DNA of 64,000 nt from an uncultured Spirochaetota bacterium (GTDB taxonomy: Bacteria; Spirochaetota; Spirochaetia; SZUA-6; Fen-1364). The stretch covers positions 736,001 through 800,000 of the forward strand of contig CAWAHW010000004.1 of the NCBI GenBank assembly GCA_963781885.1. The letters are read 5' to 3'. A model generated the notes under the pieces. The model saw only the letters and a program-made list of their open reading frames with translations, had not been told where the DNA came from and made no database searches. How positions within the stretch are numbered: the stretch's first letter is position 1; the number at the start of each line of letters is the position of its first letter. Of this stretch, positions 15,881-55,164 are shown in pieces. The translations under genes were made by a program, and so were the position numbers.

Positions 15881-17097
15881 TCAGACTAACCATTCCGCGT
15901 CTTGAATTACGGCCACATGATCGCCCTGCGCCCACCAATGCATGACTTTCATGTGCCTATCCTGAGAAATGACCAATGCGACACAATCCCGGTTCTGAGC
16001 GACGAACCGAGCGGCTGACTGGTGCCGTGTCCCGCCAACCTCAGATATCGGACTCAGCTCCGCATTCTGTTCGGCAGGAAGCGAACGAAAGATGCAAACG
16101 CTTTTCGCAACGTCCGCTTCAGTGGCTATTTTCGCTCCAAAGCCCAAGACTCCTAAATCCTTAGTAATCACAAGAGCGCCATCTACCCGTGCCAGTGATG
16201 CAACGCGACGGATTTCTGTCGGCAAGTTCCAAGCATCAACGGTGAGCGCACTCGAGAAGAATATTCTTGCTTCGTCGGTGATCCCCGCTTTTTTCAATTC
16301 TTCGAGCATCTTTCCGCCAGAAAATTGTCGCGTAAGGTTCTGCCTAATTGCGTCGTGTAGCGACAGATCAGGTGTTGCGAATCGATGAACAAATGGATTT
16401 AAGGACTCCGACCACGCGTCAGCTTCCCCAGGAACGATCAGGACGGTCCCGCCGTGCCCATCGCCGAGGATCAGCCTTCCAAGCTCTGCAAGGGTGTGGC
16501 TTTCTTGGCCTACTGCCTGAGTTTCAAGCATGTTATCAGGGGGAAACTGCTTCTTTAGAAGATTCAGCAGTATCACTTGTAGGTCGATACCCGTTCCTTC
16601 GACTATTGACATTGAATCTCGTTTGAAAACTGCGAACGTCTTGTAGGGGCCAAGTCCAACGCGCACTGTTCCAGGATCGGGCACCTCGAGAAGGACGCCG
16701 TCCGTCTGCATGCCCCCGCGTCTGCCGAATCCCCAAATCCTTAGTTCTTCAAGCGATCCATCAACGAGCAGGCAGCCTCCTGGAGGGGCGGCTGGGGCAA
16801 GCCTTTCGATTTGCGCCGCATCGTACGGCACCATCTGACCAAAGGCTATTGCACCAAGCACTTTCCCGGGATCCGCGACCGCGACAGAGAACGGGTCGGC
16901 CGCCCTTCATCAAAACTCAGGCCAGCCCAGAAAGCCGTGACGATGAGATCTGTAATCTGTTTCTTGCTGAGGAGTCTTCCCGAGCCAATAGGCGGGGGCG
17001 AGATCTTCACAAGATGGGCGTGTTGAGCGTGAAGCTTGTCGATACATTCGCCGCGGACTTCAAAGCCAAGAAACTGGTAGCCTTCTTTCACTTTCAT
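15881..17097 (-). CDS. DACNV-type sensor fused to DisA_N/diadenylate-cyclase-like domain; one frameshift near 16860
   Basis: RVDGALVI (DGA motif), GGTRHQSA (RHR-like) and VISQD. N-terminal AFWAGLSFDEGR resembles the DACNV sensor signature. Confidence 0.75.
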
Positions 17098-18088: not shown

Positions 18089-18236
18089 GGGAGGTCAATC
18101 TACTACGATTGAGATCAGCCGATCAACAACCCGCTGATCAACGCAGGTTCCTCCTCCATAAAATAGACTTGTCCCCCAACAATTATTTATTGTCAATTGC
18201 TTGATATTTAGCTTTCTACGTGATCTCTCTATTCGT

Positions 18237-19530
18237 ATGAGACACTTCTCTTTCAGGACAGCCGATTCCTTCGAACCCTCACTGCCAGCGGTGCGTCGCC
18301 CGAGAAAAGATTCTGGGGCGAGTCTGTACCGACTGTTCAGGCAGATCAACAGAGGCTTCGGACGTCACTCCGGCGGCGCCTCAGGTTCATCCAAATCGGA
18401 CAGCGACCGGCGGCAGCGGTGCATCGTCAAGGTAAGATATAGTCTCGGTGCAGGCTCTTTGCGAGCGCACCTCTCATACATCCAACGGAAGGGCTCGGGG
18501 AAGGATGGAGAGAAACCCGAACTATTCGGCAGCTCAGAGAAGTCCGAGCTGACCTCTGGCGAGGTGGGTAATCTGCGTCACTACCGCCTTGTGATCTCCC
18601 CTGAGAACGCCGAGGACTTGCCTCTACAGGTGCTTGCAAAGAAGCTCATCCATCGCATCGAGTATGATACAGGATACTCGTCTCTCCTGGGTCGCGGCCA
18701 TTCATGAGAATACCGAGCACGCCCATATTCACCTTGTGATCGGCGGCCAAGACAAGAACGGCCTTGAGGTTTCATTCAGCCGCAAGTACATATCCTCGCA
18801 AATGCGCGAGCACACCCGTAACATCCTTACCGAAGCCCTCGGGGAACGTCGGCCCATCCCCGAAGAGGAGCGCGTAAAGAAAGAGATCAAGGCTAATCGC
18901 TTCACAAGCCTCGATGAAGCAATCCAGATGGCTGCCAGGGCTGGCAGGCTATCGGTGAAGGCATTGCGAGTAGTCACTATGCCCGCAAAAGCTGATGCGG
19001 CCGTCGCCCGACTCAAGTTCCTTGAAGAGGTGGGGCTTGTGCACCGCGAAGGTCGCGATTATCACCTTGCAGCCAACTGGCAAGATTCGCTTGAGGTCTC
19101 GCGTCGGTTCGCGAGCTATCTTGGGGCAGCCAAGCAACTGAAGTTCACACCGCCCAGCCTTTTGCGTCTCTATTCTCCTGAAAAGGATGGCCGTATTGTA
19201 GGGCGGGTCAGCGCCATAGGACGGATCGATGAGCTTTCCAACAATAACTACATCCTTCTTGAGTCCATCGACGGACGAGCGTTCTATGTGCCACTTTTGC
19301 GAAGGCCGCAGGGAATCTCGGTCGGGGATTCAATCGCAATGATGAAATCACTTGAAGCCGGCTCCACCGCGCGCGGAAAACATCGGTCATCACCAAGCGG
19401 CCGACCATCTACAGCTTCAACCTACATGAGCCTTCTGGATGTACGCTATGCAAAACTGCCCGATGAGAAACTCAAGAGCGAGCTTACACGAGTTGGGGAG
19501 AAACGAAGCGGCTTCGGGCTTCAGCTATGA
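18237..19530 (+). CDS. MOBP (VirD2/DUF3363-type) relaxase; frameshift near 18690
   Basis: Motif I AHLSYIQRKG, motif II HYRLVISPE, motif III WVAAIHENTEHAHIHLVI; lies upstream of virD4. Confidence 0.88.
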
Positions 19531-19673: not shown

Positions 19674-21650
19674 ATGCAAAGCAACATCCGCAAAAAGCCG
19701 AAGCCCAACTCAAATGTGAACCAGACCTTCGCTGTCTTTCATAAGGCCATTCCCTTGGCGCTCATCTTTGCAGGCCTTTGGGTCTCCACTCAGGCCTTCG
19801 CTGGAATGTGCAACTATTCATCCGTCCTTGGCCCTTGCTGGTTTCGCTACGGTCCTACGCCTGTCTATCGCCCGTGGATGCTGCTCGCCTGGGCCTACAA
19901 GTTCGCAAGCTGGAAGCCGGTGCATGAATACCTCTACCAGGCCAGCCTTTACCTTCTGGTCTTCTCAGCAATAGCGCTGGTGACCTATTTGGTCTTGAGC
20001 TTCTTTCGCGGCCTCAGTTCCAATACCGACAACCTCTACGGTACGGCCCGTTGGGCAACCGTTCGCGACCTGCGCCGTAACGGCCTACTCTTCGGCAAGG
20101 GCGTAATTTGCGGCCAGACCGCCAAAGCCGTTCTTCGGGCTGACGCCAAGACCGGCACCACGAAGTATCGCCTCCATCGTTCTGCCAGGATTATCAGCCA
20201 TGCAGGTGAGACCTCCACTCTCATGGTCGCCCCAAGCAGATCAGGCAAAGGCGTGAGCACGGTGATCCCCTCCCTTCTCTCATGGCCAGGCAGCGTCATC
20301 GTTTTTGATCCAAAAGCTGAAAACTGGCACATTACCGCGGGGTTCCGCCGCGCCTTCTCTCACACCCTCCGCTTCAGCCCCGTGCTCAAGGATTCAGTGC
20401 ACTTCAACATCCTCTCCGAGGTAAGGCCTGGTGAGAACGCGGTTCGCGATGCTGAGATCATCGCCGACATCCTCACCGCTCCCCAGGATGAAAGTGCGGC
20501 CAAGGGTGAGAACCAACAGCACTTCATCGACACGGCGAAGAACCTGCTCACGGGTGCGATATTGCACGTGCTTGCCTCACCTGAAATCAGGAACAAAACA
20601 CTCGGCGGGGTGCTGGATTTTCTCTCATCCTCTGCTTTGAATGCCGATGGCAAAGAGGACTTCGGTGCCGGCATCTGCAAACAAATGATATTCGGCGAAC
20701 ACCTTGGTGATTTGCACGCCGTTATCCAGAGCATCGGCAATCAACAGCTTGCGCGGGCGGATCGCGAGCGCTCGAGCGTTTTTTCTACCGCGGTCCGAGC
20801 AGTTCAGACCTTCAAGGATCCTCTCATCCGCAGAAACACATCGGAGAGCGATTTCACTCTCGAGGACTTCGCAAATTCAGCAAGCCCCATCTCATTGTAC
20901 CTGACCGTGCCCTATTCGGACATCGACCGCCTTTCCTCACTTCTGAGGCTACTCATATCCTTTATCATTCGACGTTTCGCAGAAGGTGAAACGCGCTACG
21001 GCGAAGTGAAGCTAAAGAATCGTATTCTTTTCCTTCTGGATGAGTTTCCCATTCTTGGCAGCTTTCCCTTCCTGGAAAAGACCATGGGATTGCTCACCGG
21101 CTATGGAATGTCTTTTCTTATCATCTGCCAAAGCCTCCAGCAGATCATCAAGCTTTACGGGCCGAACAACTCTTTCCTGGAGCACTGCAAGACTTGGATC
21201 ACCTATGCGCCTGGGGACCTCAATAGCGCCAAAACCTTTTCCGAGGTGACCGGCAAGGAGTCGATATGGAAGGAGAGCGTTTCAACAAGCGGCAGCAAGT
21301 TTGCCGTTGGCCTATCGCATCTGAACCTAAGCGGCAATGAGGTCGAGCGCAACCTCATCAATCCCGATGAGATCATGCGACTCCCGCCAACAGATCTGCT
21401 CGTTTTCGCACACGGTATGCCACCCTACCGTGGTAAGAAGATCATCTACTACCTTGACTCCCGCTTCAAACGCTTCGTTAACCTCCCTACCCCCGAGACG
21501 CGAGACGATATCCTCAGCGAGCTTCCACCAGCAACTTCTTCACGTAACGCTTGGAGCAACCTTGCAGACGAGGATTATGCAATCACTGAAACTCTTGAAG
21601 GTGGCGCCAGAGCGTATTCCCCTCAGAATGCAGGAAGGCGCTACTGGTAG
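19674..21650 (+). CDS. virD4: Type IV coupling protein VirD4/TraG (probably extends to 21804 via a frameshift)
   Basis: N-terminal TMs, YGTARWA, APSRSGKG, FDPKAE, FLLDEFPILG and ICQSLQQI. Confidence 0.93.
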   Translation: MQSNIRKKPKPNSNVNQTFAVFHKAIPLALIFAGLWVSTQAFAGMCNYSSVLGPCWFRYGPTPVYRPWMLLAWAYKFASWKPVHEYLYQASLYLLVFSAIALVTYLVLSFFRGLSSNTDNLYGTARWATVRDLRRNGLLFGKGVICGQTAKAVLRADAKTGTTKYRLHRSARIISHAGETSTLMVAPSRSGKGVSTVIPSLLSWPGSVIVFDPKAENWHITAGFRRAFSHTLRFSPVLKDSVHFNILSEVRPGENAVRDAEIIADILTAPQDESAAKGENQQHFIDTAKNLLTGAILHVLASPEIRNKTLGGVLDFLSSSALNADGKEDFGAGICKQMIFGEHLGDLHAVIQSIGNQQLARADRERSSVFSTAVRAVQTFKDPLIRRNTSESDFTLEDFANSASPISLYLTVPYSDIDRLSSLLRLLISFIIRRFAEGETRYGEVKLKNRILFLLDEFPILGSFPFLEKTMGLLTGYGMSFLIICQSLQQIIKLYGPNNSFLEHCKTWITYAPGDLNSAKTFSEVTGKESIWKESVSTSGSKFAVGLSHLNLSGNEVERNLINPDEIMRLPPTDLLVFAHGMPPYRGKKIIYYLDSRFKRFVNLPTPETRDDILSELPPATSSRNAWSNLADEDYAITETLEGGARAYSPQNAGRRYW

Positions 21651-21800
21651 CACCACGGGTGCCCTTGAGGTAAGTCCCGAGGTGATGCTGCACCCCGAGC
21701 AGTACTTTCCCCCGGATCCATTTGCAGGGGAAGCCTCCGGCGGTGAGAGTGATCCCGAGCTGGTCGACTCCCCCTTTGGACCGATCCACAGGGGAGAACT

Positions 21801-22253
21801 ATGAAGCGACGTTCTCCTACCACCGTAGTCGGTGTACGAATTGAAGATGGGCTTCTCACGCGAATCGATGATGTCGTTAGGTCGAACGGGAACTACAAAG
21901 ATCGATCTCAATTTCTTGGTGCAGCGCTTCGCGAGAAGCTTGTCAAAGATTTTGAAGATTCAGAGCTCCAGGCTATAGCGCTAAAGAAGATATCAAAGGA
22001 CATTCGCGTACTGGATGACAAGCTTTCGACGTTCATGGAACTTTTTGGAGAGTTCATTTTCGCCTTTTTCATGAGCAGCGCTCCCCTCCCCCTGGATGAC
22101 AAGAAGAAGCTCGCAGCCATTGCGATCCCCGCCAAAAATCAGTACGAGGCTTTCATAGAAAACTTCATCGACAAAACCAAGAAATCTTCCATAGGCCTGC
22201 TATCCAGGCTAGCCGCAGACCTGATTGAAGAGCAGAGCGAAAGTCATGGCTGA
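21801..22253 (+). CDS. CopG-like ribbon-helix-helix protein
   Basis: VGVRIEDGLLTRID..RSQFLGAALRE; occupies the usual position between traG and trbB. Confidence 0.7.
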   Translation: MKRRSPTTVVGVRIEDGLLTRIDDVVRSNGNYKDRSQFLGAALREKLVKDFEDSELQAIALKKISKDIRVLDDKLSTFMELFGEFIFAFFMSSAPLPLDDKKKLAAIAIPAKNQYEAFIENFIDKTKKSSIGLLSRLAADLIEEQSESHG

Positions 22254-27280: not shown

Positions 27281-28102
27281 ATGACGATCAATCATGACGA
27301 TGATGCTTTCACCAGAGATGTCGCCTCCCGGATAAGCCGAATGACCCTTGAAGGGAAGGCGCCCTGGCTCAAGGACCACCCTGCAGGCGCCGCAGAAGTC
27401 GCCTACTACCCCTTCATCGACCCCGCGGCTATCTACACTGGAGTCAACGCCGTTCTTCTTGATCTTGTCGCCGCGGAACGCGGCTTCAAGGATCCCCGCT
27501 GGATTCCCATGGCCATGGCGGAGTCAAACGGACTCGCTCCCAAATACGGTGAAAAGCCGGTTTGCCTTGCGTTCCGCAACAGGTTTGTCGAGGTCACGGA
27601 TACAAATCCCATTAGTGGAACTATTGCATCGGCCCTTTCCGACGGTGCAAAGCGGATCAGCTACTACTATGTCTACAATGCCGAGCAGATTCGGGGCATG
27701 CCTCCATTACAGAAGGAACGGGATACAACTCTTGTCAAGATGAAGACGCAAAACGCACTCAAAAACACTGGCGCGAAGCGCACCTCAGAGCTGATCCAAT
27801 CCTTTTCCAGCCAATTGCCCAGCCACAATTGCGATGCAAAAGAGACGCTGGCCGCGATTGCAAAGTACCGACTTGCTTGCCAGCTGCGCCTTCCTTACAA
27901 GGCTGAGGTCAACCTTGAAAAGGTGCGTCGTGAAGTTCAGAAAAAAGATCAAGACTCTCTCCTTCGTGCCGCCTACTATGCGGCAAACGATGCCTCCATT
28001 GCGACCAATCCCGGAAAGGCTTTGGTTGTAGAGCCGCGCAGAACCATTCAGAGGGATCCAGAATTATCGCATCAAAGAAGCTCGCGCGGTATCGAGCGTT
28101 AG
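27281..28102 (+). CDS. ArdC N-terminal (DUF1738) ssDNA-binding protein lacking the protease motif
   Basis: GKAPWLK, YTGVN, FKDPRW, YVYNAEQ; no HExxH. Confidence 0.75.
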   Translation: MTINHDDDAFTRDVASRISRMTLEGKAPWLKDHPAGAAEVAYYPFIDPAAIYTGVNAVLLDLVAAERGFKDPRWIPMAMAESNGLAPKYGEKPVCLAFRNRFVEVTDTNPISGTIASALSDGAKRISYYYVYNAEQIRGMPPLQKERDTTLVKMKTQNALKNTGAKRTSELIQSFSSQLPSHNCDAKETLAAIAKYRLACQLRLPYKAEVNLEKVRREVQKKDQDSLLRAAYYAANDASIATNPGKALVVEPRRTIQRDPELSHQRSSRGIER

Positions 28103-28129
28103 CCATACACCTTGCTGCAGAGGTAGATC

Positions 28130-29110
28130 ATGACTGCAAGCGATGCAGGAAGCCCTCGACTCTCGTATCCAGAAAAAGTGACCCAGCGTATCATCGAATG
28201 TCTTCAAAAGGGTACGGCTCCGTGGATACGTCCGTGGGAAGCAGGAAGCGTACCGGACCGTCCCTATAATCCTGTTTCCCAGACCATCTACCGCGGGCTT
28301 AACACTATCTATTTGAGCGTTGCAGCGATAGCGAACGGGTATAACGATCCTCGTTGGATGACCTTTCTGCAATGCAATAATAAGGGTTGGAATGTCCGAC
28401 GAGGCGAGCACGCTGAAACCATTTGCTATTTCTCCCGCACAACGACAAAGACAGAAGAAGATCCTGACACCCACGAGAAAGTGAAGCGCGCCTATCGCCT
28501 GGATCGTCCCATTTTTCGCTACGCCTGCGTGTTCAACGCATGCCAAGTCGAAGGTATTGAGCCGCTTGATCGTGGATCCATAGAGCTGAAATTTGATTCC
28601 CTTCAGAAGGCAGAAGAACTCATACGGTCTCACAATCCTGCCATTATCCATGACCAAAACGACGCATGCTTCTATAGGCCCTCCACCGACTCCATCCATC
28701 TGACCCCGATGGCTCAATTCAAGTCGCAGGATCTTTACTACGCTACCGTGCTCCACGAGATGGGCCACTGGACAGGACATTCAACCAGGCTTGACCGGGA
28801 CATCTCGAATCTTTATGGCACCCCGGCTTACGCCCGCGAGGAATTGCGTGCCGAGATCGCCTCATACATGCTCTCATCAGATATCGGCATCTCGCACGAT
28901 CCGAGCAACCACGCCAGCTATATCGCTTCATGGATTGAGGTCCTAAACCAAGACAAAACCGAGATCTTCAAAGCTTCCAATGACGCGGAGAAGATACTCC
29001 ATTTCATAACAGGCCCGGGTAGGAGCATCGACAATTCGTTGGAGGATACAATCGAGAGCCCTGATCGAGTAGCTATGGAAAGATCGAGTGTTTTTGAAAT
29101 CGGGGCATAA
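28130..29110 (+). CDS. ardC: Antirestriction protein ArdC
   Basis: GTAPWIRPW, YRGLN, DPRWMTF, VFNACQ, zincin HEMGHWTG, YAREELRAEI, HASYIASW. Confidence 0.92.
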   Translation: MTASDAGSPRLSYPEKVTQRIIECLQKGTAPWIRPWEAGSVPDRPYNPVSQTIYRGLNTIYLSVAAIANGYNDPRWMTFLQCNNKGWNVRRGEHAETICYFSRTTTKTEEDPDTHEKVKRAYRLDRPIFRYACVFNACQVEGIEPLDRGSIELKFDSLQKAEELIRSHNPAIIHDQNDACFYRPSTDSIHLTPMAQFKSQDLYYATVLHEMGHWTGHSTRLDRDISNLYGTPAYAREELRAEIASYMLSSDIGISHDPSNHASYIASWIEVLNQDKTEIFKASNDAEKILHFITGPGRSIDNSLEDTIESPDRVAMERSSVFEIGA

Positions 29111-29203
29111 AGCAAAAGGCCGCTTCAGCCTTGACGAGTACCGGCTCTTAGGGCAAGTGCTTGGGTTGGCTCAGGACATTCCAGATTCGGATATGTCCCA
29201 CCA

Positions 29204-29923
29204 TCAAAGCTCCATGCCGCCTCGATCACGATCAGAACGCCTGACGATACTTTCATCGCTCAATTGCTTGCTCAAAATATCAATACTGGGGATTGGAAAC
29301 ACCTGAGAAGCCCTGGCGGCCTGGACCCGAAGTTCTTCACGAACCTTGGCTTCAACCTTCGCCAAATCGCCATCTTCATAGAAGGTTAACGCCCGCAGGC
29401 ACTCTGCCGGAGCGAATGCAGAACCATACATTGCCCTCGCCGCTCCAAGCCCTTGACTCAAGCTCGATCCGCCACGCAAGAGTTCGGCGATGTCGATGTA
29501 GTCCTTGGCCTCTGCTCGCTGCATGATTACTTTGAGTTTCGTCGCCAGGAGATCAAGCGGCGATGCGACCAAGAGAATGCCATCACTGGTCTGGCTTGGG
29601 GCACCAACCCGCCCCATACCCAAGTCGCCAAAGAATGACAGCTTCACGTTGCCAGGTTCGGTAAACAGGGAGAGGGAGTTCTTCTCATCCTGAACGACAT
29701 GAAAAGCAATGCCGGATTTTTGCAGCTCATGATGGATAAGAGTTTGATTCAATTGCCTGTCTGTGAAAAAGTCGAAATCGATCGATGCGCGATGTCCACA
29801 CCACAGGGCGACAGCGGTGCCGCCGTACAGAACGAGGCCGTTGGTTTTCGTCCACGCCAAGGCAGGCCAGATCTGTTTTTGGGTTTCAGGCAGTATTTCC
29901 GAATGCTCTTTGAATGAGGTCAT
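29204..29923 (-). CDS. AbiEii/AbiGii-family nucleotidyltransferase toxin
   Basis: LYGGTAVAL..GHRASIDFDFF and KDYIDI. Confidence 0.88.
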   Translation of the reverse strand: MTSFKEHSEILPETQKQIWPALAWTKTNGLVLYGGTAVALWCGHRASIDFDFFTDRQLNQTLIHHELQKSGIAFHVVQDEKNSLSLFTEPGNVKLSFFGDLGMGRVGAPSQTSDGILLVASPLDLLATKLKVIMQRAEAKDYIDIAELLRGGSSLSQGLGAARAMYGSAFAPAECLRALTFYEDGDLAKVEAKVREELRVQAARASQVFPIPSIDILSKQLSDESIVRRSDRDRGGMEL

Positions 29924-30207
29924 GAGACTCTCCGCAAAGGCAAGGGCGGCAAGGTAGCATCTGATAGTCCGTTAAGCAGGTATTGCCAGTATGACCAGGA
30001 GCGAGGACGGAATTGTCCCGCCTCGGCATTTTGCAGCGTCTGACGCAGCGCATCCTCACCAACGATACCCACTAGTTTGTGAATATCCTCAAAAGTGCCG
30101 ATGTCCATGATCCGGGCGATGACCCGCTGCGGGTATTCCATGGCCTCTTCCGGTGGAAGCCACCAAGTATAGCTTCTTGCCAGCTCAAGCAGTCTTGGAT
30201 CACTCAT
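29920..30207 (-). CDS. Putative cognate antitoxin
   Basis: Coupled upstream of the toxin; YTWW..P..A..P.RVIARIMDIGT pattern typical of partners of this NTase clade. Confidence 0.7.
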   Translation of the reverse strand: MSDPRLLELARSYTWWLPPEEAMEYPQRVIARIMDIGTFEDIHKLVGIVGEDALRQTLQNAEAGQFRPRSWSYWQYLLNGLSDATLPPLPLRRVS

Positions 30208-30419
30208 TTCTTTGTACCCGCGTGATCCGGGGGCTTGTTCGGATAGACGGTAAATGATCCGTCTTTGTTTTCCCTGATGTAGGCCGTCATGCCTTTCACG
30301 AGGCCCAGAGAGCGCACCAAGTCAGCAGGGAGACTCATTCGCATAGATTGTGCAAATGTGCCATTATTCGCTTGGAAAGTAGAGGCAAACAGACCTGATT
30401 CTGTTTTTGATTTCCCCAT
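30204..30419 (-). CDS. AbrB/MazE-like DNA-binding protein
   Basis: SMRMSLPADLVRSLGLVKG; coupled to the antitoxin gene. Confidence 0.65.
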   Translation of the reverse strand: MGKSKTESGLFASTFQANNGTFAQSMRMSLPADLVRSLGLVKGMTAYIRENKDGSFTVYPNKPPDHAGTKK

Positions 30420-30551
30420 GATCGTATAGTACCCGCTGCCTATCGGGTTGTCAAGGCGAGGCGCGTCAAGTATCGAATCAACGATCGCAAAGAGCGGGCA
30501 AGAATATTTTTGGATTCGTATGCCAAGCGAAACCAGGCCAGACCTTCCCCA

Positions 30552-33500
30552 TCACCCAAGCTCCTGCTCAATTCCACTTTTTCCATAGGAGGCCACAGGA
30601 TCGCGTGCCCTGGAAAGGTCCACTTCTTTTCGTAGCCTCACAGCAATGCCGTTGAAGATATAAAACCGCCTTACCCTTTCTCTAACGCCGCTCAAACCGC
30701 CTTCGCCACCAAGATACTTCTCAAGCCCCGAAGCTGTGATCAGGTAGGCCCCGTACTTCACTCCCTCCGGCTCCAATATCTTTTTTACAAGGACATCTCC
30801 AGCACAGATAGTGCCCTTGTTTCTCACATATGAACCGGCAAGGCCATCCCCATTCCCCTCGATCCAGGTCGGTCCTTTTTCGTCAAAGTCCCGTATTGCC
30901 TCTTCTACGATATTCATTGCCCTTTCGGCTCGAAGGCATTCTTCGTTGAGCGCCTTTTCGAGGTTCGCAATAATCATTCCAGGTAGTTCAAGTCCATAGA
31001 GATTCTTTGTCTTTTCCAGAACTTGCTCTACCGTAGTGAGGGCTTCCTCGTCCTTTCTCGGCATCATGACCGTCACGATGCTATTGAGATATCGTTCTAT
31101 CTCCTCACTTACCTTATCCGCGGGCCATGTTTCAAGGCCTTCCCAATCAATTCGACAGTCTTCGCTCCTGTCTTTGTTTTTCTCGTTGTGCTCCTGGATG
31201 GCCTGGACTACCACTTTGTAACGTGCTTCCTTTTCATTCAGTTCTGCGGTTTTGCTGAACTCACTCGATGCCATTTTTTCAAGTCCAGGCCTGGTCGACA
31301 CCCTGCTTTTCAGCATCTTCTCTTGGTAGTCCAGCTTGCCGTCCATGCCCTTATAGATAGAATGGTGAAAAGATCGTATGAGGCCGATGGGATCTGAATC
31401 CACCCTTATATCCGAACCATAGGCATAGAATGTGGCTTTCACATATATTTCAGCAAGGTGATTTTCCCACAATCCGTTTACGCGAACCATGACTGGGTAG
31501 CCCGCATAGGTTCCTACCACTTTCTCAGCCTCTTTTTGGCTTGCCCGTGCCTTCTCATTCAATAGCTTCGCTTCCCTCAATATCTCAAGCCCTGCTTCCC
31601 GCCTTTCCCCGTACTCTCGCCCATTTATGACCATGATGAACTCTTCCCCTTTTGACTCCGGCGCCCTCAGGGATATGTCCTTCCTTATCTTCTCGGTTTC
31701 TTCTTTGAGCCGCTTGGTCTCAGAGGGCAGCAGACTCAGTTGACGCGCGGCGCTTGCCACTTCGTTTCGGAATCCCTTCTGAAACGATTTTAGCTTTTTG
31801 ACCGCATGATCCAGCTCAATCGCCTCTTTCATCAGAGGATTGTCTATCGAAAGCTCTTTCACGCTGCCGTAGTAGTTTTCTTCTATCTCCCGCGTGGCCT
31901 TGTCCGAACCATCCATAACTTGGCGAATGGCGATAGCCTTTGTTTCCAAGACATTCCACAGGCCAGTATCCAGCGATCCCTTTGTCACCATGTTATACAC
32001 GTCAAGGGTTCCTGTTGTGTTGCCTTGCCTGTAGCCACGGCCATTCTGCTGTTCGATGTCCCGCGGCCTCCAGGGCGCATCCACATGAACTATCGATTTC
32101 AGCAGTCTCTGAAAGTTCACCCCTGCGCCCATGGTTTCGGTACTCCCGAAAACAATCCGCTTCTTTCCCTCATTTACATCGACCGACAGAAGGTATCGAT
32201 CCTCAAAGGTCTTGCACTCCCGCATGTCACCGATCTCTTGTGGATCTACACCAAGTGAAATCAAACCTGCCTTCATCTCCGCCACAGCATCGAATCTCAG
32301 GCTTCCATCTTCGGAGAAGCTTCGCGGTTTGTCAAAGAACACCGCGGTGGTGTACCTATCCTTCTTGTGTCTATCATAGATCTCATAGATCTTTCGAATG
32401 CTCATATTGAGCTTTGACTTGGGATCGTTGGGCAGGCTGGGGTGAATCAGCCTCATGTCGATGGCGGCCTTCCTGCCGTCGGTCATTATCGAGAGAATAT
32501 TGTCCGCACCCTTCTCTGCCCTTCCTGAAAGCTTGCTTTCTCTTTCCTGCAAGTACCGTAGATACGACTTCATAAGCGGCGAAGCAGGGGCTGCCTCATT
32601 CTTTTGATTCAGATTGGGCAGGTTCACACCAGGTACAAAAATCCCACTCGCCTCGAGGTTGTGAGCCGTCTGAATGTCCCAACACTGGCGCAGGCTTGTG
32701 ACTAGCTCTGGAACATTCACGATCTTCGAAAACCGCGTTACAGGCACGTACCCCGTTCCTGTATTGTTCAGCTCCATCTGCGTAACGGTTTCCGCGTACT
32801 GCCTTGCCCATTCGTCAAACGCTTCCAGCCTGTTTGCCTTCAGTACTTCAGGCTGCAAAAACCGCTGCATCGTGTAGCCTTCAACGAGTGTATTCGATAT
32901 GGGCGTTCCGGTGGCGAAAACTACCCCACCGTCGATGCTCTGGATGTACCTGACCTTCAACATCATGTCGAACGCCCTGTCGCTTCCCAGCGCAGAGCCG
33001 AGGCCTCGAACGTTAGTCAATTGCGTGTAGTATTCAAGGTTCTTGTAGATGTCCGCCTCATCGATCATCAGTTGATCGACTCCAAGCTTATCGAACGGAA
33101 TCACTCCTTCATCTTGCCTTATGTCAGATAGCTGCTTGATCTTTTCTTCATACCGCTTGATAGCCTTTTCGGCATCCTTAGTCGATCTGGATCTTCGTCT
33201 GCCGGAACTTCCATCCGTCTCAGACAGGATCTGCCTATATTCGGAAATCTTTGAGTAGAAAAAGTCCTTCTGAAGCTCTTTGCTCACCGGGATCATCTTG
33301 AAAGATTCCGCCCTGATCACCACCGCATCCCAATCCCCAGTGGCGATCTTATTGATAAAGGTCTTTCGATTGTCCTTGTGCCAGTTCTGGTCATCGGCGA
33401 TGAGCAGTTTGGCGTTGGGATAGGCTGCTCTGAAATTGTCGGCCCACTGCCCGATGAGATGGTCAGGACAAACAATCATCGGCTTTGCCCTTAGGCCTAG

Positions 33501-36396
33501 CCGCCTTAGTTCCATCGCGGCGCATATCATTTCAAGTGTCTTGCCCGCCCCTACGCTATGAGCCAACATCACGTTTTTCTGTTGCAGGATTCGCCACACC
33601 GCGTCGGCCTGGTGTGCCCTCAATGGGTAAGGGAAATTGCAGCCACTGAAAAATACCTTAGCCGCTGGGTCAACCAGTCTCTCAGGATATGTGAATGTCC
33701 GTTCTACATGGCTATTGAAGACCTCGTTATACCTCTTGGCAATGTCAGTTGCCCGCTCGTTATCTGCCCATATCCAGTCCATGAAAGCGGTGTTTATCGC
33801 CTCAGCCTTGCTTTCCACAAGTGCCGTTTTCTCAGGATTCAGCACAGGGTTGCCCTTCTCATCCTTGTCGAAAACCTTCACGGGCTTTCCGTTCATCATC
33901 AAATTGATGATTTCAACGGCATCAAGGTCCTGGGTCCCGAACTCCTGGTTTCTCTTGTTCCAGTCCGTTCGCCAGGCATTTATCTCCCATCTTCCATTAA
34001 TGCTCAAATGCTGGATATCAATGTCTTCATCGCTTGCATCCAGAAGGGATGAGATAAACGACTGAATGTGCGCCTCACCCACTATGGGGGAATTGATCCT
34101 GATTGAAATCTCCTCTGGCCCAAGGGGTGCAGGCTGCACTTTCCGCAACGCAATCACATTTCCCATAAATAGGCTTGGCTGCATATCAGCCATCTTTTCT
34201 GCGATCTCAAGCTTCACCCTGACGTTGCCTGAAAGATACTCATCCGATGTAAGATGCCGTATGGTCTGGCTCGTCTGATACTCTTCGGGGTCAATGTAGA
34301 CCATACCCCCTGCAATCAATGCTGCCAAAAGCTGCTCCCGATCCGTGCCCGTGATTGCTTCCATGTATGCTTCGTTCAAGTGGCCGAACCTCGAAAGGGA
34401 GAGAATCAAAGCGTCGGTGGGGTTCTCTGCCGAAGTGACATAGGCTTTCCTTGCAAAAGATATGCCCTTGAATATGTCTGCTTTCGCGGCAATCTTTGCC
34501 TTGGCATTCCAGTTCTCAAGGGAGCAGAGGAGCGTTGCATCAGGATCCTTGTGAATGAGACGCCAATTCTTCTTCTCGTTTAGGAATCCATGCTCTGCAA
34601 CAAAGCTGTCATACAATGCGTTGAGACGAGTGAGCTCTTGCTGAACATCCAGCGGTTGATCGTTATGGTAGTGTTGTATTGCTTTCTTGGCTGACTCCTT
34701 TATCGTTACCATTTTCATGATGCACTGTATTTTCTCTCTGTTTGCCGCCTCATCTTCGTAGAGCGATGATAGCTCGACCACTCCCGTTAGCGGGTGTTTC
34801 TGATATAACCTCGTATCATCGCCAATTACGTAGCTCCCGTTTGAAAGTCCCTCCCCGCTTGCACTCGGCACGGGGCTTCCCTTCTTCTCCAGCTCCCTCG
34901 TGCGTTCCTCCACTATGACGGACATGAGGTTCTCGGGAAGAAGCGCGATCACTTTGTCTATTTCGCCATACAGATCCTCATATTCGGAAGTCACGGTGTA
35001 CTCATTTGCCTTGTACATCGTGCCGGCCAGCTCCGCTCGGCCCAGGACAAATTGAGGGTTGTCAATGAAAAACTGGTTTACATGAACCTTCGCCAGTCCG
35101 CCTTTCCCGGGAAGCTCCATCTCTCCCGCTAGGACAAACTTCCGCGTCAGCTCCGTAGGTTCTCGCCCTTCAACTCTCTTCTGCAAGAAGACAATATCGG
35201 TGACAACCTCAGTATTCGCGATTTCTCTGGAATGTATTGTTCGGAAGTCGGATCGCACCTATGAAATCAGCCACTTGGGCAATCTTTTCTCGAACTTCCT
35301 TGGATTCCTTGTCCATTGTGTAGCGACTGGTGATAAAGGCAACTATTCCGCCCTGCCGTGTGCCATACAGGGACTTCAGGAAATAGAAGTCATGCAAGGC
35401 ATACCGACCATCGAGGCCAGGGGTCCTGGTCTTGCTGTCTTCGTAGGGCTTTACCTCAGAGAAGGGAACGTTGGAGAGGACCAGATTGTAGCGGTTGGCC
35501 TCTATGCGAACATCTTCATAGGGCATGATCCGAATGTCGGCGGACTGGTACAGATGTTGGGCAATCCTGCCTGAGACCGTGTCCATCTCGATGCCGTGCA
35601 TTTCGATGGCCGCCTCAAGCGGACGAACACCGAAGAAATGACCGACCCCCGCGGCAGGTTCGAGCGTAGGTCCTCCGCTATACCCAAGCCTTCTCACGGC
35701 TTTCCATATACATCGCGCTATTTCAGGGTCCGTGTAGTGTGCGTTTAATGTCGATCGTGAGGCCGAGCGGTATTCTTGTTCACTAAGAAGGTCTTTAAGC
35801 TCATGGAAGCGTTCATTCCACCTTCCCTCTTGCCCTTCCTTGAAGGCTTCTGCCAACCCTCCCCATCCGATGTATTTGACGAGGACGGCCTGCTCCTCGG
35901 AGGTTGCGTATCGGCTTTCCCGCTCTAAAAGCTTTAGAAGCCTGATTGCAGCGACATTCTGCTCGTACTTTTCGACTTTCCCGCCTACCCCTACCTTGTC
36001 ACCAACATTTATCCGATAGTTTCCCCGATCGTCAGTATGCCCGTTTCTCAGCTCCCCAGAAGATCGTGCTGCGCCTCCTCTGGGCCTATCAGGATATATT
36101 TCGGGAGCACGATCTCCAGCGCCTCGTTGTGCCTCATCCCCTGATCCGAGACCAGAGACAGAAGTTCCTCTTCGGCCATCCGTGCCACGCTCACCAGATG
36201 CTCCTCCAACTTCCCCTCCCTCTCCAGCCGGCGGTAGAGCGTCGGGAGATACCTCATGCGGTGCCCTCTTGCCATCTCTACGAAGTTGTCCATCTTCTTC
36301 CTCCGCGGAATCTCCTTCCTCATCGGTGTTGAGGAGGTCCCCAAATAGATTAAGCTGCGTTTCATCATCTTGAGCTTTCCCTTTGCGCTTTGCCAT
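30552..36396 (-). CDS. DarB-like adenine methyltransferase-SNF2 helicase fusion (~1,950 aa); frameshift near 35230
   Basis: YIGWGG, NAHYT, LEPAAGVGHF, NVPF, RLPNNTF | AHSVGAGKT, IDEAD, ATGTPISN, PWRPRDIEQQNGRGYRQGN. Confidence 0.9.
36048..36293 (-). CDS. TnpV-like small protein nested out of frame in the DarB-like gene
   Basis: GGAGG RBS 8 nt before ATG. MARGHRMRYLPTLYRRLEREGKLEEHL resembles the TnpV pattern. Confidence 0.6.
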   Translation of the reverse strand: MDNFVEMARGHRMRYLPTLYRRLEREGKLEEHLVSVARMAEEELLSLVSDQGMRHNEALEIVLPKYILIGPEEAQHDLLGS

Positions 36397-36492
36397 TGTA
36401 GTCCAACTCCAAAAGAGATTGTAGTAGGCCCATTTATCACAGAAGGGGATCCCGCGCTTGGCAAGACCCCCTTCTTTTCAGGCTGCTTCGGC

Positions 36493-36873
36493 CTATAGCT
36501 CCACTCCTGCCTCTTGGTTCCTTGATGCGGCTTTTTCACGATTCAGCTCGCGCGGCTCTACCTTGTTTGCTTCGATGAGAACCATGTTGTGCTGCTTTCC
36601 TTCAGCGTCCGTCCACTGTTCCTGTCCGAGTGAACCTTCGATATGGATGGGTTCGCCCTTACGCATATCAGCCACTGCATCAGCGATCGTATTCCACGCC
36701 TTTACGTCGATGTAGCTCGTCTTCTCCTTCCATTCGGGGTCCTCTCGGCCTTTGTAATACCGATTGCTGGCGATACGCATCGTGGCAACCCGCATGCCAC
36801 CGTCAAGCAGTTTGATCTTGGGTGCCTCTACCAACCTTCCATCGATGTTCACCTGGTTCAGATCGCTTGCCAT
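36493..36873 (-). CDS. ssb: Single-stranded DNA-binding protein
   Basis: LNQVNIDGRL, KGEPIHIEGSL..EQW. Confidence 0.9.
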   Translation of the reverse strand: MASDLNQVNIDGRLVEAPKIKLLDGGMRVATMRIASNRYYKGREDPEWKEKTSYIDVKAWNTIADAVADMRKGEPIHIEGSLGQEQWTDAEGKQHNMVLIEANKVEPRELNREKAASRNQEAGVEL

Positions 36874-38262: not shown

Positions 38263-40000
38263 TCAGTCCCAGGCAATGATTATTGGCCAAGACTTCGTAA
38301 GGATTTGCGAACCGTTGTGAGTAACGACAAGGTACAAGGTCCCTGTGGTCCTAGTACCCCCCGATCAGAGCCCAGCCGGCGCTGTAGTTGAAGGTGTACA
38401 TATTGTCACTCACCGTTCCGTAGGTCAGATTCCCGCCGTCGTTCTCTCCCTGGTAATTCCATGTGTAGGCTATGCCCGTTGCCCCGCTCTGGCTTGGAGT
38501 GCAGGTGAGGGTTATTGAACCGCCCTGGTTTGCGATCTGAAGTGCTCCGGTGGATAACTGTTGGGACAGCACGCTTGACTGACCGTTTGAGAAGGAGGCG
38601 GTGACATTGGCGCTCAAGGTGGTGAAGCTGTAGGCGCATCCAATGTTTGCCGTCGCGTCGGTGGTTGATGCGGTGATGTTTGCCTGCCCCTCTTGATGCG
38701 GCGTTACAGTAATCGTGTGGGTGGAATTGTTCACACTTACTGTGGCAACCGAACTGTTATCGGATGTCACGTTAACCGTGGTACCAGGAGGCGATACGCT
38801 GTAATTCACCGTCGTCGCCCCATCGCTTGGAGCTCCATTTATGCTTGTCTGGGACAGCGTGAGAGACCTGTCCCATTTGGAGGTGATGCTCAAGCTATCA
38901 GAGGTCATCCCATCCGCCAGCGTCGCCTTTAGCGTAGCCGTCCCTTCCTTTATTAGGGTGACAGTGACCTGCTTTGCACCGCGGTTGTCCGAATAGCTTG
39001 CGACATTCACATCACTCAACGACCAATTGATGCTCATCGTGGCAGGGCTATAGTCATAGCCAATGGTGAAGGTGTTTCCCGGATATCCTGAGACGGCCCC
39101 TGTCTGAAAGGCCATCTTCTTGTTTGACTGCACGATCACGTCGCACTGAGCTACCTGCGTGCCGAATACCGCAAACACCGTACCCTGCCCAGCGCTATTG
39201 GCTATCAGGTTCACCAACGCTCCGTTTCCGGCGACTGTAAGGAAGTTGCTGTCCGTCCCTGTTGCTGCGCGAACCGACCACTGAATCGAGGCGATATCCG
39301 ATGTTGAGCCACCCGCGATTGAGGCATCCAGCTCCTGGATGTCTCCTGGGTTCATCATGAAGTTGTTCTTGCTGAGTTGTAGCGCCTTCGTCGATCCGTC
39401 AACCTTGATTGAAATAGAGAAGGTTGAGGTGGACATCGGATGACTGAGGATGATCTGCGTCGTTGCCGCTTTGAGAGCTGTAACGACGGCATTCGGCCCC
39501 TGGCCAAGGATTTCAAGGACACTGGGATCCTTAACCTGCCACTGAATGCCATTCTGATCTTGGTCGCTTCCTCCCACAAGCTGTGCTGAGATGCTTCTGG
39601 AGTCCCCTGGGGCCATGAGGATCACGGTTTCTGAGCTTGTGATGTAGGCGCCACTTCCTGAGCCACTTGATGGCACCACATTGCAGAGCACCTGGGTTTG
39701 TTTGTCCCCGATCGTTGCCGTCAGGGTCGTAGAGCCCAGGTGCTTTCCCGTGATGAGGCCAACCTTGCTGGTACCGTAGACATCAGCGTAGTAGTCGTCT
39801 TTGACTTTCCATGAGACCTCCCCCGCGGCCCCTGGCGGATCTGTGGTGACATTCACGGTCACCTGCTCTCCAGGTCCTACCGTGAGGTATGCTGGGTCCA
39901 CCGTTATGCTTGCGATACCTGTCGTGTCGTTAGGCACGAACAAATAGCAGCCCGAAAGCATCACGCCCAACACGACTGCGAAAGCCAAACCCTTTTTCAT
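38263..40000 (-). CDS. Lipoprotein with tandem bacterial Ig-like (Big_2) domains
   Basis: Lipobox LSGC and ~5 repeats of the WxVxDxxV type. The ORF stops at 38351, but a shift in the G-run continues beta-rich sequence to 38263. Confidence 0.8.
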
Positions 40001-52883: not shown

Positions 52884-54413
52884 CTACGCCTTTTCGGGAG
52901 GACATGTCAGCTTGGGAACGATATTCTGAGGTAGAAGCGCAACGTACTGCTCCGTTGTCGTCGCGGAAATCAGCTCATCGAACAGGAACCGCAGATACCA
53001 ATACGGTTCGTGCCCATTAGCTTTCGCGGTTTCAATGATGCTGTAGAGGGCAGCACTTGCCTGCGCCCCGCGAGAGGTGGCGCTGAATAGCCAGTTCTTC
53101 CTCCCTACCACGAACGGCCGTATGGCGTTCTCGGCAAGGTTGTTGTCAGGATGCAGCATCCCGTTCTCCGGGTACCGCTCCAGCCTTTCCCACTGCCCAA
53201 GGGAATATCCGACCGCCTTGCCCAGCAGCCCCTGGGGCGGCGTCTGATCACGAAGGTCCTCAAGCCATTTCTTGAACGCTGCCAGCAAGGGTTTCGCCTT
53301 TCGAGTGCGCAGTTCGGCTCTCTGCTCATCATCAAGACCCCGTTGATCAGCCTCAACTTCCACGGCATAGAGCTTACGGATGTGCTCGATGGCCTCATGC
53401 GCCGCCGATCCAGCTGCCGCTACCTTGGTGACATCCACAAACTTGCGTCGTGCATGAGCCCAGCAGCCCATCATCACCACACCGTCGCAGCGGCCCAACT
53501 TGTCGTAGCCGCGGTAGCCATCGGTCTGTGCATACCCCTGGTAGCCATCCAGGAACTCGTAGGGCACGTCGCCACTGCGTGAGGGGTGATAGGCATAGAC
53601 CAGGGTGGGAGCTTTCGGATTCCCGCCCCGATATACCCACATCTGGCTCGTTGATCCCGGATCACTCAATACCTGCAACGGTGTCTCATCGATCTGCACG
53701 TAGGGCCCAGCCCGTATCTGGTCTCGCATCAGCTGCAGAAATGGTTCCAGCCTCTGAGCCACCTCCATAGCCCAGCTGCACATCGTTGTCCGTGACAGAT
53801 CCACTCCCATGCGGGCGAATATCTTCTCCTGGCGGTAGAACGGCAGGGCGTCGGCGAACTTGCTCACCATCAGGTAGGCCAGGAGTTCGGGAGTAGCGAT
53901 GCTCTTGGGGATCAATTGAGGAGCCGGCGGGGCGATCTTCACCGCACCCCCCTCTGTATCCACTCCCTGGCATGCTCGGCAGGCGTACTGGGGCCTCACA
54001 TGCTGAATGACCTTCGCATGGGCAGGAATGATCTGCAACTGCTCGCTCACCTCTTGCCCGATGCGGCTCATTACCGCTCCGCAGGCGCACACCTTCTGCT
54101 CTTCGGGGATATCGTGCACCACTACTTCCCGCGGCAAGTTCTCAGGCAGCGGGCGGCGACCGGCTTTCTTGCGCGTGTGGCCAGCAACGGCAATGACGGG
54201 TTCTTCAGGCTCGGAGGCTTCAACGGCCGCTGAGGATCCCTGCTCGGCCTCGTTGAAAAGCCGCGCCTGCTTCTCCTCCGCCTCACGATCCGCGGAGCGC
54301 CCGAAGCGGTGAGCTTTGGCCAACCGTAGCTCTTCTTCAAGAATCTGGATCGTCTTGCCCTGCTCGATAACCAAATGGCGCAGCTCCTGCACATCCGTGG
54401 GAATATCAGCCAT
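52884..54413 (-). CDS. tnpC: IS66 transposase TnpC
   Basis: KFADALPFYRQ, IDETP, QTDGY, CWAHARRKF, DNNLAENAIRP, GRKNWLF. Confidence 0.95.
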   Translation of the reverse strand: MADIPTDVQELRHLVIEQGKTIQILEEELRLAKAHRFGRSADREAEEKQARLFNEAEQGSSAAVEASEPEEPVIAVAGHTRKKAGRRPLPENLPREVVVHDIPEEQKVCACGAVMSRIGQEVSEQLQIIPAHAKVIQHVRPQYACRACQGVDTEGGAVKIAPPAPQLIPKSIATPELLAYLMVSKFADALPFYRQEKIFARMGVDLSRTTMCSWAMEVAQRLEPFLQLMRDQIRAGPYVQIDETPLQVLSDPGSTSQMWVYRGGNPKAPTLVYAYHPSRSGDVPYEFLDGYQGYAQTDGYRGYDKLGRCDGVVMMGCWAHARRKFVDVTKVAAAGSAAHEAIEHIRKLYAVEVEADQRGLDDEQRAELRTRKAKPLLAAFKKWLEDLRDQTPPQGLLGKAVGYSLGQWERLERYPENGMLHPDNNLAENAIRPFVVGRKNWLFSATSRGAQASAALYSIIETAKANGHEPYWYLRFLFDELISATTTEQYVALLPQNIVPKLTCPPEKA

Positions 54414-54478
54414 GTTAGCCACGCGTGTCACGGGCACATGCGTAGCATTGTTGACTTCCGGACGTTCAAGGACTTTTC

Positions 54479-54826
54479 TCAAACAACTCGGGAGTATTTC
54501 ACTTCCGCGTGCGCTTCCCTGACATCAAGACCCGCCAACAACCATTCCAGTTGCCGACCATCCATCTGCATGACCTCCGCGGCGCTCTTCGGCCAGCGGA
54601 ATCGATCACGTTCCAGGCGCTTCTGCCAAAGGCAGAAGCCGTTACGGTCCCAGTAGAGAACCTTGATCCTATTGCGCCCTCGGTTGCTGAAGACGAAATA
54701 CCCGCCCCCCAGAGGATCGTGCCCCATATGCTGCTGCGCCAGGATCGCCAGCCCATTGATCGCCTTTCTCATATCCGTGACGCCCACTGCCAGGTAGACC
54801 TTCGCGTTGGTCTCCAGTCTCATCAT
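54479..54826 (-). CDS. tnpB: IS66 accessory TnpB
   Basis: TDMRKAINGL, KVLYWDRNGFCLWQKRLE. Confidence 0.95.
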   Translation of the reverse strand: MMRLETNAKVYLAVGVTDMRKAINGLAILAQQHMGHDPLGGGYFVFSNRGRNRIKVLYWDRNGFCLWQKRLERDRFRWPKSAAEVMQMDGRQLEWLLAGLDVREAHAEVKYSRVV

Positions 54827-55164
54827 GCGCGACGCTCCACCACCTGCAACAACTCTTCCAGGGTACGGGTGCAGAATCCGGGGTACACCTCGATGTGATA
54901 TCCCCTCCCTACCACAAGGCGAATAGCTCCATGTCGGTCAGGGTTCATCATCGTATGCGGCAGTTGCATGGGCACGGGAACGAATGTGGCGGGTTTCTCA
55001 TCCTTTCCCATCAGCTTCAGTTTCCAGTAGACAAATGCATGTTTGGATATTTGATGCTCTCGGCAATACTCGACTTGTTTCAGGCCGCTGGCTTTCCAGG
55101 CCGCCAGTTGTTCGTTCCAGTATTGTCTCCTCTGCTCGTCCTGTCCTGCCTTTTCCAAATCCAT
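54823..55164 (-). CDS. tnpA: IS66 accessory TnpA
   Basis: WKASGLKQVEYCREHQIS..FVYW and FVPV. Confidence 0.88.
   Translation of the reverse strand: MDLEKAGQDEQRRQYWNEQLAAWKASGLKQVEYCREHQISKHAFVYWKLKLMGKDEKPATFVPVPMQLPHTMMNPDRHGAIRLVVGRGYHIEVYPGFCTRTLEELLQVVERRA

Follow-up and report, generated by a model that had tools for sequence, protein, structure and literature searches.

Why should proteins of unrelated families, encoded by a single conjugative element, end in nearly the same four residues? The question is raised by a 64,000-nucleotide stretch from an uncultured Spirochaetota bacterium (GenBank assembly GCA_963781885.1, contig CAWAHW010000004.1), the whole of which is referred to here as the window (G000:C4:736001-800000, with G000 denoting the host genome). 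Judged by its gene content, the 18-50 kb section of the window is an integrated conjugative element with a Trb/IncP-type type IV secretion system (T4SS). A first-pass annotation had quoted similar C-terminal tails from six of its proteins, among them an AbiEii toxin, and read them as signals for delivery into recipient cells. Our analysis suggests that the tip of these tails is a real, selected and disordered C-terminal linear motif that docks its bearers to a common partner in the transfer apparatus, a reading to which we assign a probability of roughly 45%. The genes concerned, including that for the coupling protein TraG, are as follows.

18201-19530, plus strand: RlxS/VirD2-type relaxase (DUF3363), interrupted by one inserted base near 18680; matches Pfam DUF3363, MobL and Relaxase
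18634-19530, plus strand: tail-bearing open reading frame (ORF) of the relaxase, ending ..EKRSGFGLQL, with ..KRSGFGLQL at 19504-19527
19674-21804, plus strand: IncP-type TraG/VirD4 coupling protein with a one-base insertion near 21606; Pfam T4SS-DNA_transf, 1.7e-81; tail ..PIHRGEL at 21781-21801
27281-28102, plus strand: ArdC-N-only protein, 273 residues; Pfam ArdcN, 7.5e-9; tail ..RSSRGIER at 28076-28099 (quoted as ..QRSSRGIER)
28130-29110, plus strand: ArdC (ArdC-N plus zincin-like MPTase); Pfam MPTase-PolyVal, 3.7e-43, and ArdcN, 1.6e-30; tail ..ERSSVFEIGA
29204-29923, minus strand: MenT/AbiEii-type nucleotidyltransferase toxin, 239 residues; Pfam AbiEii; quoted tail ..RRSDRDRGGMEL
29207-29254, minus strand: 16-residue C-terminal extension of the toxin, ..SDESIVRRSDRDRGGMEL
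30552-36396, minus strand: DarB-like methylase-helicase in overlapping ORFs (35209-36396 and 30552-35258); SNF2, ResIII and Helicase_C; tail ..GKSGIEQELG
36493-36873, minus strand: element SSB, 126 residues; Pfam SSB, 4.2e-19, 69 bits; tail ..SRNQEAGVEL, with the tip ..QEAGVEL at 36496-36516

A C-terminal tip on unrelated proteins

All six quoted tails are present in the sequence exactly as given. Their likeness is close for four of the six proteins: the relaxase (GLQL), the ArdC-N-only protein (GIER), the toxin (GMEL) and the SSB (GVEL) bear a strict tip, G-[ILVMF]-[EQ]-[LRI], at the extreme C-terminus, while the other two, ArdC and the DarB-like protein, are a loose fit. As had been claimed, the tail is missing from ParA, ParB, the antitoxin and the Trb proteins; TraG, unlike the Trb proteins, has a like ending once it is read across its frameshift. 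Compared across homologues, the motif is a small residue, mostly G, followed by a hydrophobic residue, E, and then L or R. The element SSB, the ArdC-N-only protein and the MenT/AbiEii toxin carry it in this form, and looser versions are found on TraG (R-G-E-L/R) and on the relaxase (G-L-Q/H-L, in most cases plus one more residue).

The strict tip is found in 7 of the 3996 ORFs considered genome-wide (non-overlapping, chosen greedily, at least 80 residues), and four of the seven lie inside the window; those outside it are an unknown ORF, the C-terminal portion of a sigma-54 activator and an ABC transporter. Put differently, 4/32 ORFs of the element core bear it against 3/3927 outside the window (Fisher p = 1.2e-7, for a pattern picked post hoc). 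A pattern-independent test used reduced-alphabet 4-mers and 20000 random sets of 32 ORFs. Three core proteins have one reduced-alphabet 4-mer in common, at a background frequency of 2/3927; any pattern common to at least three ORFs arose in 1.55% of the random sets, and an equally rare one in 0/20000. The 3′ DNA of the tail-bearing genes shows no repeat between genes, so the likeness exists at the protein level only. A common DNA repeat or terminator at the gene ends was considered as the source of the tails and rejected, as both the codons and the downstream DNA differ.

The SSB has an OB-fold domain (TIGR00621, 73.9 bits, above cut-off) and ends ..EAGVEL in place of the acidic ..DDIPF tip. 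The earlier claim of such a replacement is borne out, with the main SSB of the host ending ..FEDDIPF. The C-terminus of E. coli SSB is a partner-binding hub. Among 15 homologues of the element SSB (65-99% identity), the 12 that end G-[VMIL]-E-L are all of the undamaged ones, and the linker before the tip is variable. A search of viral contigs with the SSB found nothing. Two further SSB paralogues in the host genome also lack DDIPF (G000:C7:405882-406358 and G000:C6:152206-152538, ending ..AELAGIS and ..KEKDLK).

For the ArdC-N-only protein, a full HMMER search covered 1.84 billion cluster representatives. Among the best 150 matches, 12 end [ILVMFA]-E-R (GIER, GGIER, GFER, SMER, AVER, AMER twice, GLER twice, ALER, SAER and GIER). 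These twelve proteins span 134-1966 residues and have varied architectures, the tail following KfrB, a peptidase (MPTase) or unassigned sequence. For comparison, endings of the form [ILVMFAY]-E-[RL] occur in 16 of the 3996 host-genome ORFs. The same query found nothing in viral contigs. ArdC-N joined to a zincin-like peptidase is present in ArdC, whereas the protein at 27281-28102 has ArdC-N only. Relatives of ArdC end ..SPAFEIGA (locus L002) and ..APAFEAAA (L005), and more distant ArdCs are without such a tail. In the DarB-like protein, SNF2-type NCBIfam matches fall below cut-off; its N-terminal ORF matches no family but shows an NVPF motif.

Two ORFs outside the window, at G000:C4:715563-715967 (minus strand, 134 residues) and G000:C2:1144648-1144932 (plus strand, 94 residues), both end ..SDRSAIER, close to the tail of the ArdC-N-only protein, whose variant in L009 ends ..RSSRAIER. 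The 134-residue ORF follows closely on a tyrosine integrase gene, some 20 kb upstream of the window; the 94-residue ORF is surrounded by genes of IS66 and IS200 and by a ParE toxin.

The toxin module and where it occurs

The toxin belongs to the AbiEii family (Pfam PF08843, 52.4 bits against a cut-off of 22.5, E = 9.2e-14). In its AlphaFold2 model (predicted local distance difference test score, pLDDT, 90; predicted template modelling score, pTM, 0.88), residues 231-239 fall below a pLDDT of 50. The C-terminus is thus predicted to be disordered within a confident model, in keeping with the unstructured C-termini of T4SS substrates that bear a C-terminal signal. Top Foldseek matches were MenT1 (8an5, 8an4), JHP933 of H. 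pylori, MenT3/TglT and MenT4, at probability 1.00 and TM-scores of only 0.45-0.57; a sequence search of the toxin-family profile against solved structures found none. A G..D-x-D motif (G35, D49 and D51) is invariant in 38/38 toxin sequences, a catalytic role for these residues being inferred from the family. There is no BID domain: the extension spans only 16 residues, and Pfam finds AbiEii alone. The protein is a MenT-like nucleotidyltransferase with small partner genes, which overlap one another as follows.

29920-30207, minus strand: presumed antitoxin, 95 residues; 4-base overlap with the toxin start; matches no known family (Pfam, NCBIfam)
30204-30419, minus strand: 71-residue ORF (MGKSKT..), third gene of the module; 4-base overlap with the antitoxin start; no Pfam match

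In every related locus that includes this stretch, the 95-residue gene is found upstream of the toxin (40-98% identity), and the 71-residue ORF is kept upstream of the antitoxin in L009, L010, L011 and L037. Since both accompany the toxin, they form a three-gene module with it. No AbiEi-type antitoxin, with a winged helix and C-terminal domain, was found, the upstream 95- and 71-residue proteins having no Pfam or NCBIfam match. Neutralisation by these small proteins is presumed from their conserved pairing with the toxin.

The toxin's tail recurs widely among its relatives: 53 of the best 120 matches end G-[ILVMFA]-E-[LF], and 8 more end D-x-[ED]-[RQ]. A quick maximum-likelihood tree of 107 rows was built, with 14/120 matches shorter than 205 or longer than 262 residues omitted. 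Tail-bearing toxins form one clade in it (89/107 rows; SH-like approximate likelihood-ratio test support, SH-aLRT, 98) next to a tailless outgroup of 18 rows, and deep branches of the clade end RGALEL, HDLER and AELEL. The tail is therefore ancestral to a large clade and not a gain made on this element. The window toxin has a 223-residue form as its closest sister group; in L012, a stop codon lies directly before the extension, and the remnant GIAGQANRDRG follows downstream. Across 21 full-length toxin genes, the ratio of nonsynonymous to synonymous divergence (dN/dS) is 0.31 for the last nine codons and 0.23 for the last four, at a synonymous divergence (dS) of 0.6-0.8, with 0.12 for the body. 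Values of 0.2-0.3 at such dS indicate that the tail peptide itself is under selection. Conservation of the tail merely as DNA is rejected by the same figures.

A metagenome scan with the toxin yielded 80 loci, whose ORFs were compared by BLAST with 30 window proteins. Element genes stand beside the toxin pair in only three of the 80: in L009 the pair adjoins ArdC and ArdC-N genes, much as ArdC adjoins it in the window; in L037 TrbE (83% identical) lies near the pair and the toxin is broken; and in L043 the relaxase gene is directly downstream. Flanks were annotated with Pfam for 15/80 loci, 11 of which hold a complete tail-bearing toxin gene. The neighbours of tail-bearing toxins are chemotaxis kinases, sugar transporters, TetR, aldo-keto reductase, GH32, Nramp, PFK, other toxin–antitoxin (TA) pairs and transposases. 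A search of 400 other genomes of the phylum at E <=1e-20 did not find the toxin.

A close relative of the element, L002, lies in a Spirochaetota metagenome-assembled genome (G401; ArdC 88% and TraG 92% identical). That genome also holds a second element of the family, L143 (G401:C92), in which a 316-residue AbiEii paralogue is followed by small genes, a 239-residue toxin ending RGGTEL, the relaxase, TraG, the 150-residue gene described below and TrbBCD. The toxin pair thus recurs in the element family (the window, L009, L037, L043 and L143), and in L043 and L143 it is the immediate upstream neighbour of the relaxase gene. G401 further has a chromosomal tail-bearing toxin, L142, beside a chemotaxis cluster resembling those of L015 and L016. 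This chromosomal copy coexists with two such T4SS elements in G401, the sole genome where co-occurrence could be examined. The AbiEii paralogue of L143 (511-1461, plus strand) lies upstream of the three-gene module and ends ..RDRHRRGWEM; L010 has a like AbiEii gene of 311 residues without the RRGWEM ending.

The element and its transfer genes

By Pfam and NCBIfam, the element encodes a relaxase with DUF3363, an IncP-type TraG, and TrbB, C, D, E, L, F, G and I. Further genes specify ParA, ParB, the ArdC-N-only protein, ArdC, the AbiEii-family toxin with its small upstream gene, the DarB-like SNF2 helicase and the SSB. Relaxase, coupling protein and homologues of VirB4, VirB11 and VirB2, 3, 6, 8, 9 and 10 (Pfam) are all present, as expected of mating-pair formation type T (MPF-T, Trb). 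GC content is about 53% in the window and 63% in the host genome.

The lineage is a distant one, as the relaxase (RlxS, 154.7 bits) and TraG (IncP-type TraG, 466 bits for the L002 protein) score below the curated NCBIfam cut-offs. A tblastn search of plasmids with the relaxase returned matches of at most 31% identity only, of RlxS/VirD2/DUF3363 types, which likewise places the element in a distant, unstudied lineage. Megablast of the region against plasmids gave zero matches, and relatives of the relaxase (29-36% identity) occur in just 11 of the 400 other genomes of the phylum.

Three window genes are split: that for the relaxase at about 18680, traG at about 21606 and the DarB-like gene at about 35230 (overlap 35209-35258). 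The first two sites were compared with contigs from four other metagenome runs, three of which cover each site. At 18680/18681, the extra base is absent from every covering contig in runs X1 and X3 and from a share of the covering depth in X5; at 21606/21607, every covering contig of X1, X2 and X3 has one base fewer. Since the extra bases are missing in other runs, the relaxase and TraG frameshifts are private to this assembly and most likely errors. The idea of a decaying element was set aside on the grounds that the extra base is missing from all covering contigs in most of the other covering runs. The element need not be dead.

The relaxase is intact, at 430 residues, in L002. Of 42 homologues, 28 keep ..R-[SG]-G-F-G-[LA] followed by two or three residues, mostly as GFGLHLS or GFGLHLQ, and only three end GFGL[HQ][LI]. 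The relaxase tail is conserved in this alignment, but in another register than the tip. At about 30% identity, relaxases end in other, mostly basic sequences. TraG ends ..PIHRGEL in the window, ..SIRRGEL in L002 and ..SIRRGER in L143. A complex prediction for TraG (L002 residues 105-735, 9-row alignment) and the toxin (38-row alignment) scored 0.00 against a mark of 0.32 and weighs neither way. One further gene enters the argument.

21801-22253, plus strand: 150-residue protein encoded directly after traG; 10 positional homologues aligned

The position of this gene after traG is kept in all the elements examined, both the related ones and those of Treponema. Its product gives a weak match to NikR-like proteins (ribbon-helix-helix type, E = 0.006), and its AlphaFold2 model is of modest confidence (pLDDT 70, pTM 0.32), too uncertain for comparison with TraM. 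We speculate that it combines an N-terminal ribbon-helix-helix with long helices and acts as a relaxosome accessory.

Elements in Treponema whose relaxases are about 30% identical share the T4SS layout. Their tip-bearers include a relaxase ending GFER and genes adjoining the relaxase. In two of these loci, the gene directly after traG ends ..EKEIER (L117 2581-3525, minus strand; L114 16321-17169, plus strand); one of the two copies has a PBECR1 nuclease-type domain, which is toxin-like and known from polyvalent proteins.

Other features of the window lie apart from these genes. A surface-type protein with a Big_2 (Ig-like) domain is encoded at 38351-40000 (minus strand), between the SSB region and TrbI, and may be an adhesin for mating-pair formation; its Treponema counterpart, in the same position, is a giant of about 2000 residues (e.g. 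L111 10150-16071). An IS66-family insertion sequence (TnpA, TnpB and transposase; 52884-55164, minus strand) adjoins the element and has further copies in the genome. Just upstream of the relaxase region, a 326-residue protein (15881-16861, minus strand) gives weak matches to a DisA-type diadenylate cyclase and a DACNV sensor domain, both below cut-off.

What the tip may do, in the light of known systems

The earlier idea of a shared functional C-terminal tag gained support from the conservation of the tip in SSB, toxin and ArdC-N homologues, from the disordered tail and from the enrichment in the element, whereas its toxin-specific claim failed the annotation's own test. In the mechanism that we favour, the tip would dock its bearers to one common partner in the DNA-transfer apparatus, be it the coupling protein or an accessory of the relaxosome to which the tail of TraG is bound as well. 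Because TraG ends alike, the partner could be an accessory that holds the coupling-protein tail, as TraM does that of TraD in F, and the 150-residue protein encoded after traG is a candidate. Docking would bring the SSB, the ArdC-N protein and the relaxase to the transfer channel and so lead to their export with the DNA; a delivered protein set of this kind is plausible. The toxin would first of all be part of an ordinary three-gene MenT-type TA module, one that these elements gain and lose and that stabilises them. The toxin's tail may give it access to the same docking site, and its injection into recipients is possible but unproven.

Precedents for such export have been described. The F-type T4SS exports SSB, ParA/B and PsiB (PMC8406263), conjugative T4SSs export chromosomal proteins, antitoxins among them, with signals that are C-terminal or internal (PMC11288057), and TA toxins encoded beside the relaxase can be conjugative T4SS substrates (PMC5675462). 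Co-transfer of ArdC-N proteins with the DNA into the recipient has been proposed (PMC5512222), and TraM binds TraD at its C-terminal tail (PMC3159463).

Several observations weigh against the docking mechanism. The tip pattern was defined post hoc, on data already seen, and the endings of ArdC (..FEIGA) and the DarB-like protein (..EQELG) fit it only loosely; a search of G401 gave no match to the DarB-like protein, leaving no homologue tails to compare. In the relaxase, 25 of the 28 motifs stand one residue off the C-terminal end, with H where the others have E. A tip-like ending on the coupling protein is odd for a tag that this protein should itself read. In the Treponema elements, 8/343 ORFs end [ILVMFAY]-E-[RL] against a background of 16/3996 in the window genome, a modest enrichment between genomes that differ in composition, and one of the eight matches is TrbL. 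The nonsense-truncated 223-residue subclade of the toxin has persisted and diversified, which argues that the tail is dispensable for keeping the module. Docking and export are inferred from sequence. Finally, the flanks of the 11 tail-bearing toxin loci, taken up to 10 kb, contain no T4SS, relaxase, ArdC or SSB gene.

This last result, together with L142 beside its chemotaxis cluster, overturns the expectation that the tail is confined to T4SS-linked toxin copies (11/11 flank-annotated tail-bearing loci lack a conjugation gene). The confinement test is nonetheless weaker than it looks, given that the toxin pair recurs in the element family, that the chromosomal copy of G401 coexists with two elements and that chromosomal proteins are exportable.

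Independent, family-specific tails are the competing explanation that survives best, and we regard them as somewhat unlikely. On this account, the likeness of the last four residues reflects convergence or chance: the SSB tip would be a hub of its own, the toxin tail would serve regulation or RNA binding, and the relaxase tail would have its own role. Consistent with it, the toxin tail is clade-wide and mostly chromosomal, the relaxase motif differs in register and residues, the FEIGA/FEAAA ending of ArdC is a motif of its own, SSB tips are known as partner-binding hubs and the tip pattern was a post hoc choice. Yet a G-hydrophobic-E-L tip is invariant in the unrelated SSB and toxin families, hydrophobic-E-R recurs on ArdC-N proteins of unrelated architecture, random 32-ORF sets never gave a group of three with so rare a pattern, and the toxin pair keeps returning in one element family.

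The docking mechanism could also be generalised. The tip would then be a portable, sequence-defined docking and export signal, G/S/A-hydrophobic-E-L/R, of Trb/IncP-type systems, read at the coupling-protein-tail site and borne by SSBs, ArdC-N/polyvalent anti-defence proteins and MenT-type toxins, with the toxin delivered along with the DNA. We consider this broader version improbable.

The full model of the first-pass annotation, in which the nucleotidyltransferase toxin is injected through the T4SS and harms recipients in which the element is not established and the antitoxin not expressed, seems more doubtful still. In its favour, the tail also occurs on proteins whose classes are exported or have been proposed to be, and the catalytic-type residues are conserved. 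In L043 and L143, the TA pair also lies immediately upstream of the relaxase, resembling the arrangement reported for VbhTA and other TA toxins with T4SS signals (PMC5675462). Against it, tail-bearing copies lie mostly in ordinary, non-conjugative chromosomal settings, an outcome that the annotation itself had named as counting against the model; moreover, the tail is ancestral to its clade and predates any association with elements, the sister group nearest to the window copy tolerates losing it to a nonsense codon, and toxin translocation is a prediction.

A degradation or processing tag, by which a host protease or the element's ArdC peptidase would remove early-acting proteins and the toxin in a timed manner, is very improbable: a disordered peptide at the very C-terminus, ending hydrophobic-x-hydrophobic, would suit it, as would the MPTase peptidase encoded beside these genes (of a kind proposed to process delivered polyvalent proteins; PMC5512222), but no protease link was either tested for or found, a degron on a TA toxin and a coupling protein has no obvious logic, and chromosomal toxin copies have no neighbouring ArdC.

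Testing the docking mechanism matters beyond this locus. How conjugation machines choose their protein cargo is poorly defined, the signals covered in the sections of PMC11288057 drawn on here being charge, hydrophobicity or large domains rather than a short sequence. A four-residue tip common to an SSB, ArdC-N proteins of varied architecture, a toxin and a coupling protein would offer a simple, testable target and make cargo predictable from sequence. If the toxin is cargo, TA toxins would have become conjugation-delivered effectors by a second, independent route besides that of the BID-domain cases. Should the tip not serve export, there would still be a conserved peptide to explain, both in a large clade of MenT-type toxins and in an SSB lineage that has lost the usual partner-binding tip.

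Among known systems, the VbhT/VbhA (FicTA) pair of Bartonella plasmid pVbh has its TA genes beside the relaxase gene, as do L043 and L143. VbhT carries a BID-domain signal of about 100 residues, and its export was shown by a Cre assay (PMC5675462); the counterpart here is a 16-residue extension with a four-residue tip that may serve export. Unlike VbhT, the toxin here is a MenT-type nucleotidyltransferase, and most of its tail-bearing copies are chromosomal. For the exported proteins of the F plasmid and for the 'conjutome', the sections of PMC8406263 and PMC11288057 drawn on here report signals by charge and hydrophobicity or internal ones, and no sequence-defined tip; nor was such a C-terminal tip found in the portions of literature searched.

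In F, the end of the flexible TraD tail is read by TraM, a ribbon-helix-helix relaxosome protein (PMC3159463); here, TraG ends RGE[LR], and a possibly ribbon-helix-helix-type 150-residue gene follows traG. The sequences are unrelated, the F tail is not reported on SSB or cargo in the part of the source covered, and binding of TraG by the 150-residue protein is speculative. Polyvalent proteins with an ArdC-N 'header' share the domain set of ArdC-N, MPTase and DarB-type methylase-helicase, which are encoded here by separate genes; the passages of PMC5512222 on C termini and tails make no mention of a C-terminal tip or 'secretion signal'.

The toxin itself resembles MenT1/MenA1, MenT3 and MenT4 of Mycobacterium tuberculosis and the AbiEii/AbiEi type IV TA system, by its Pfam AbiEii domain and structural matches. 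MenT1 has a small upstream partner gene, and so does the toxin here. It differs from the MenT and AbiE systems in having partners of 95 and 71 residues rather than an AbiEi-type antitoxin, and in its conserved C-terminal extension, which does not feature in these comparisons. The bacterial SSB hub, lastly, is built on the same plan as the element SSB, an OB fold followed by a short disordered linker and a short conserved terminal tip. Its ..DDIPF tip is of the acidic-I-P-F type, whereas that of the element SSB is G-hydrophobic-E-L and is also present on proteins that are not SSBs.

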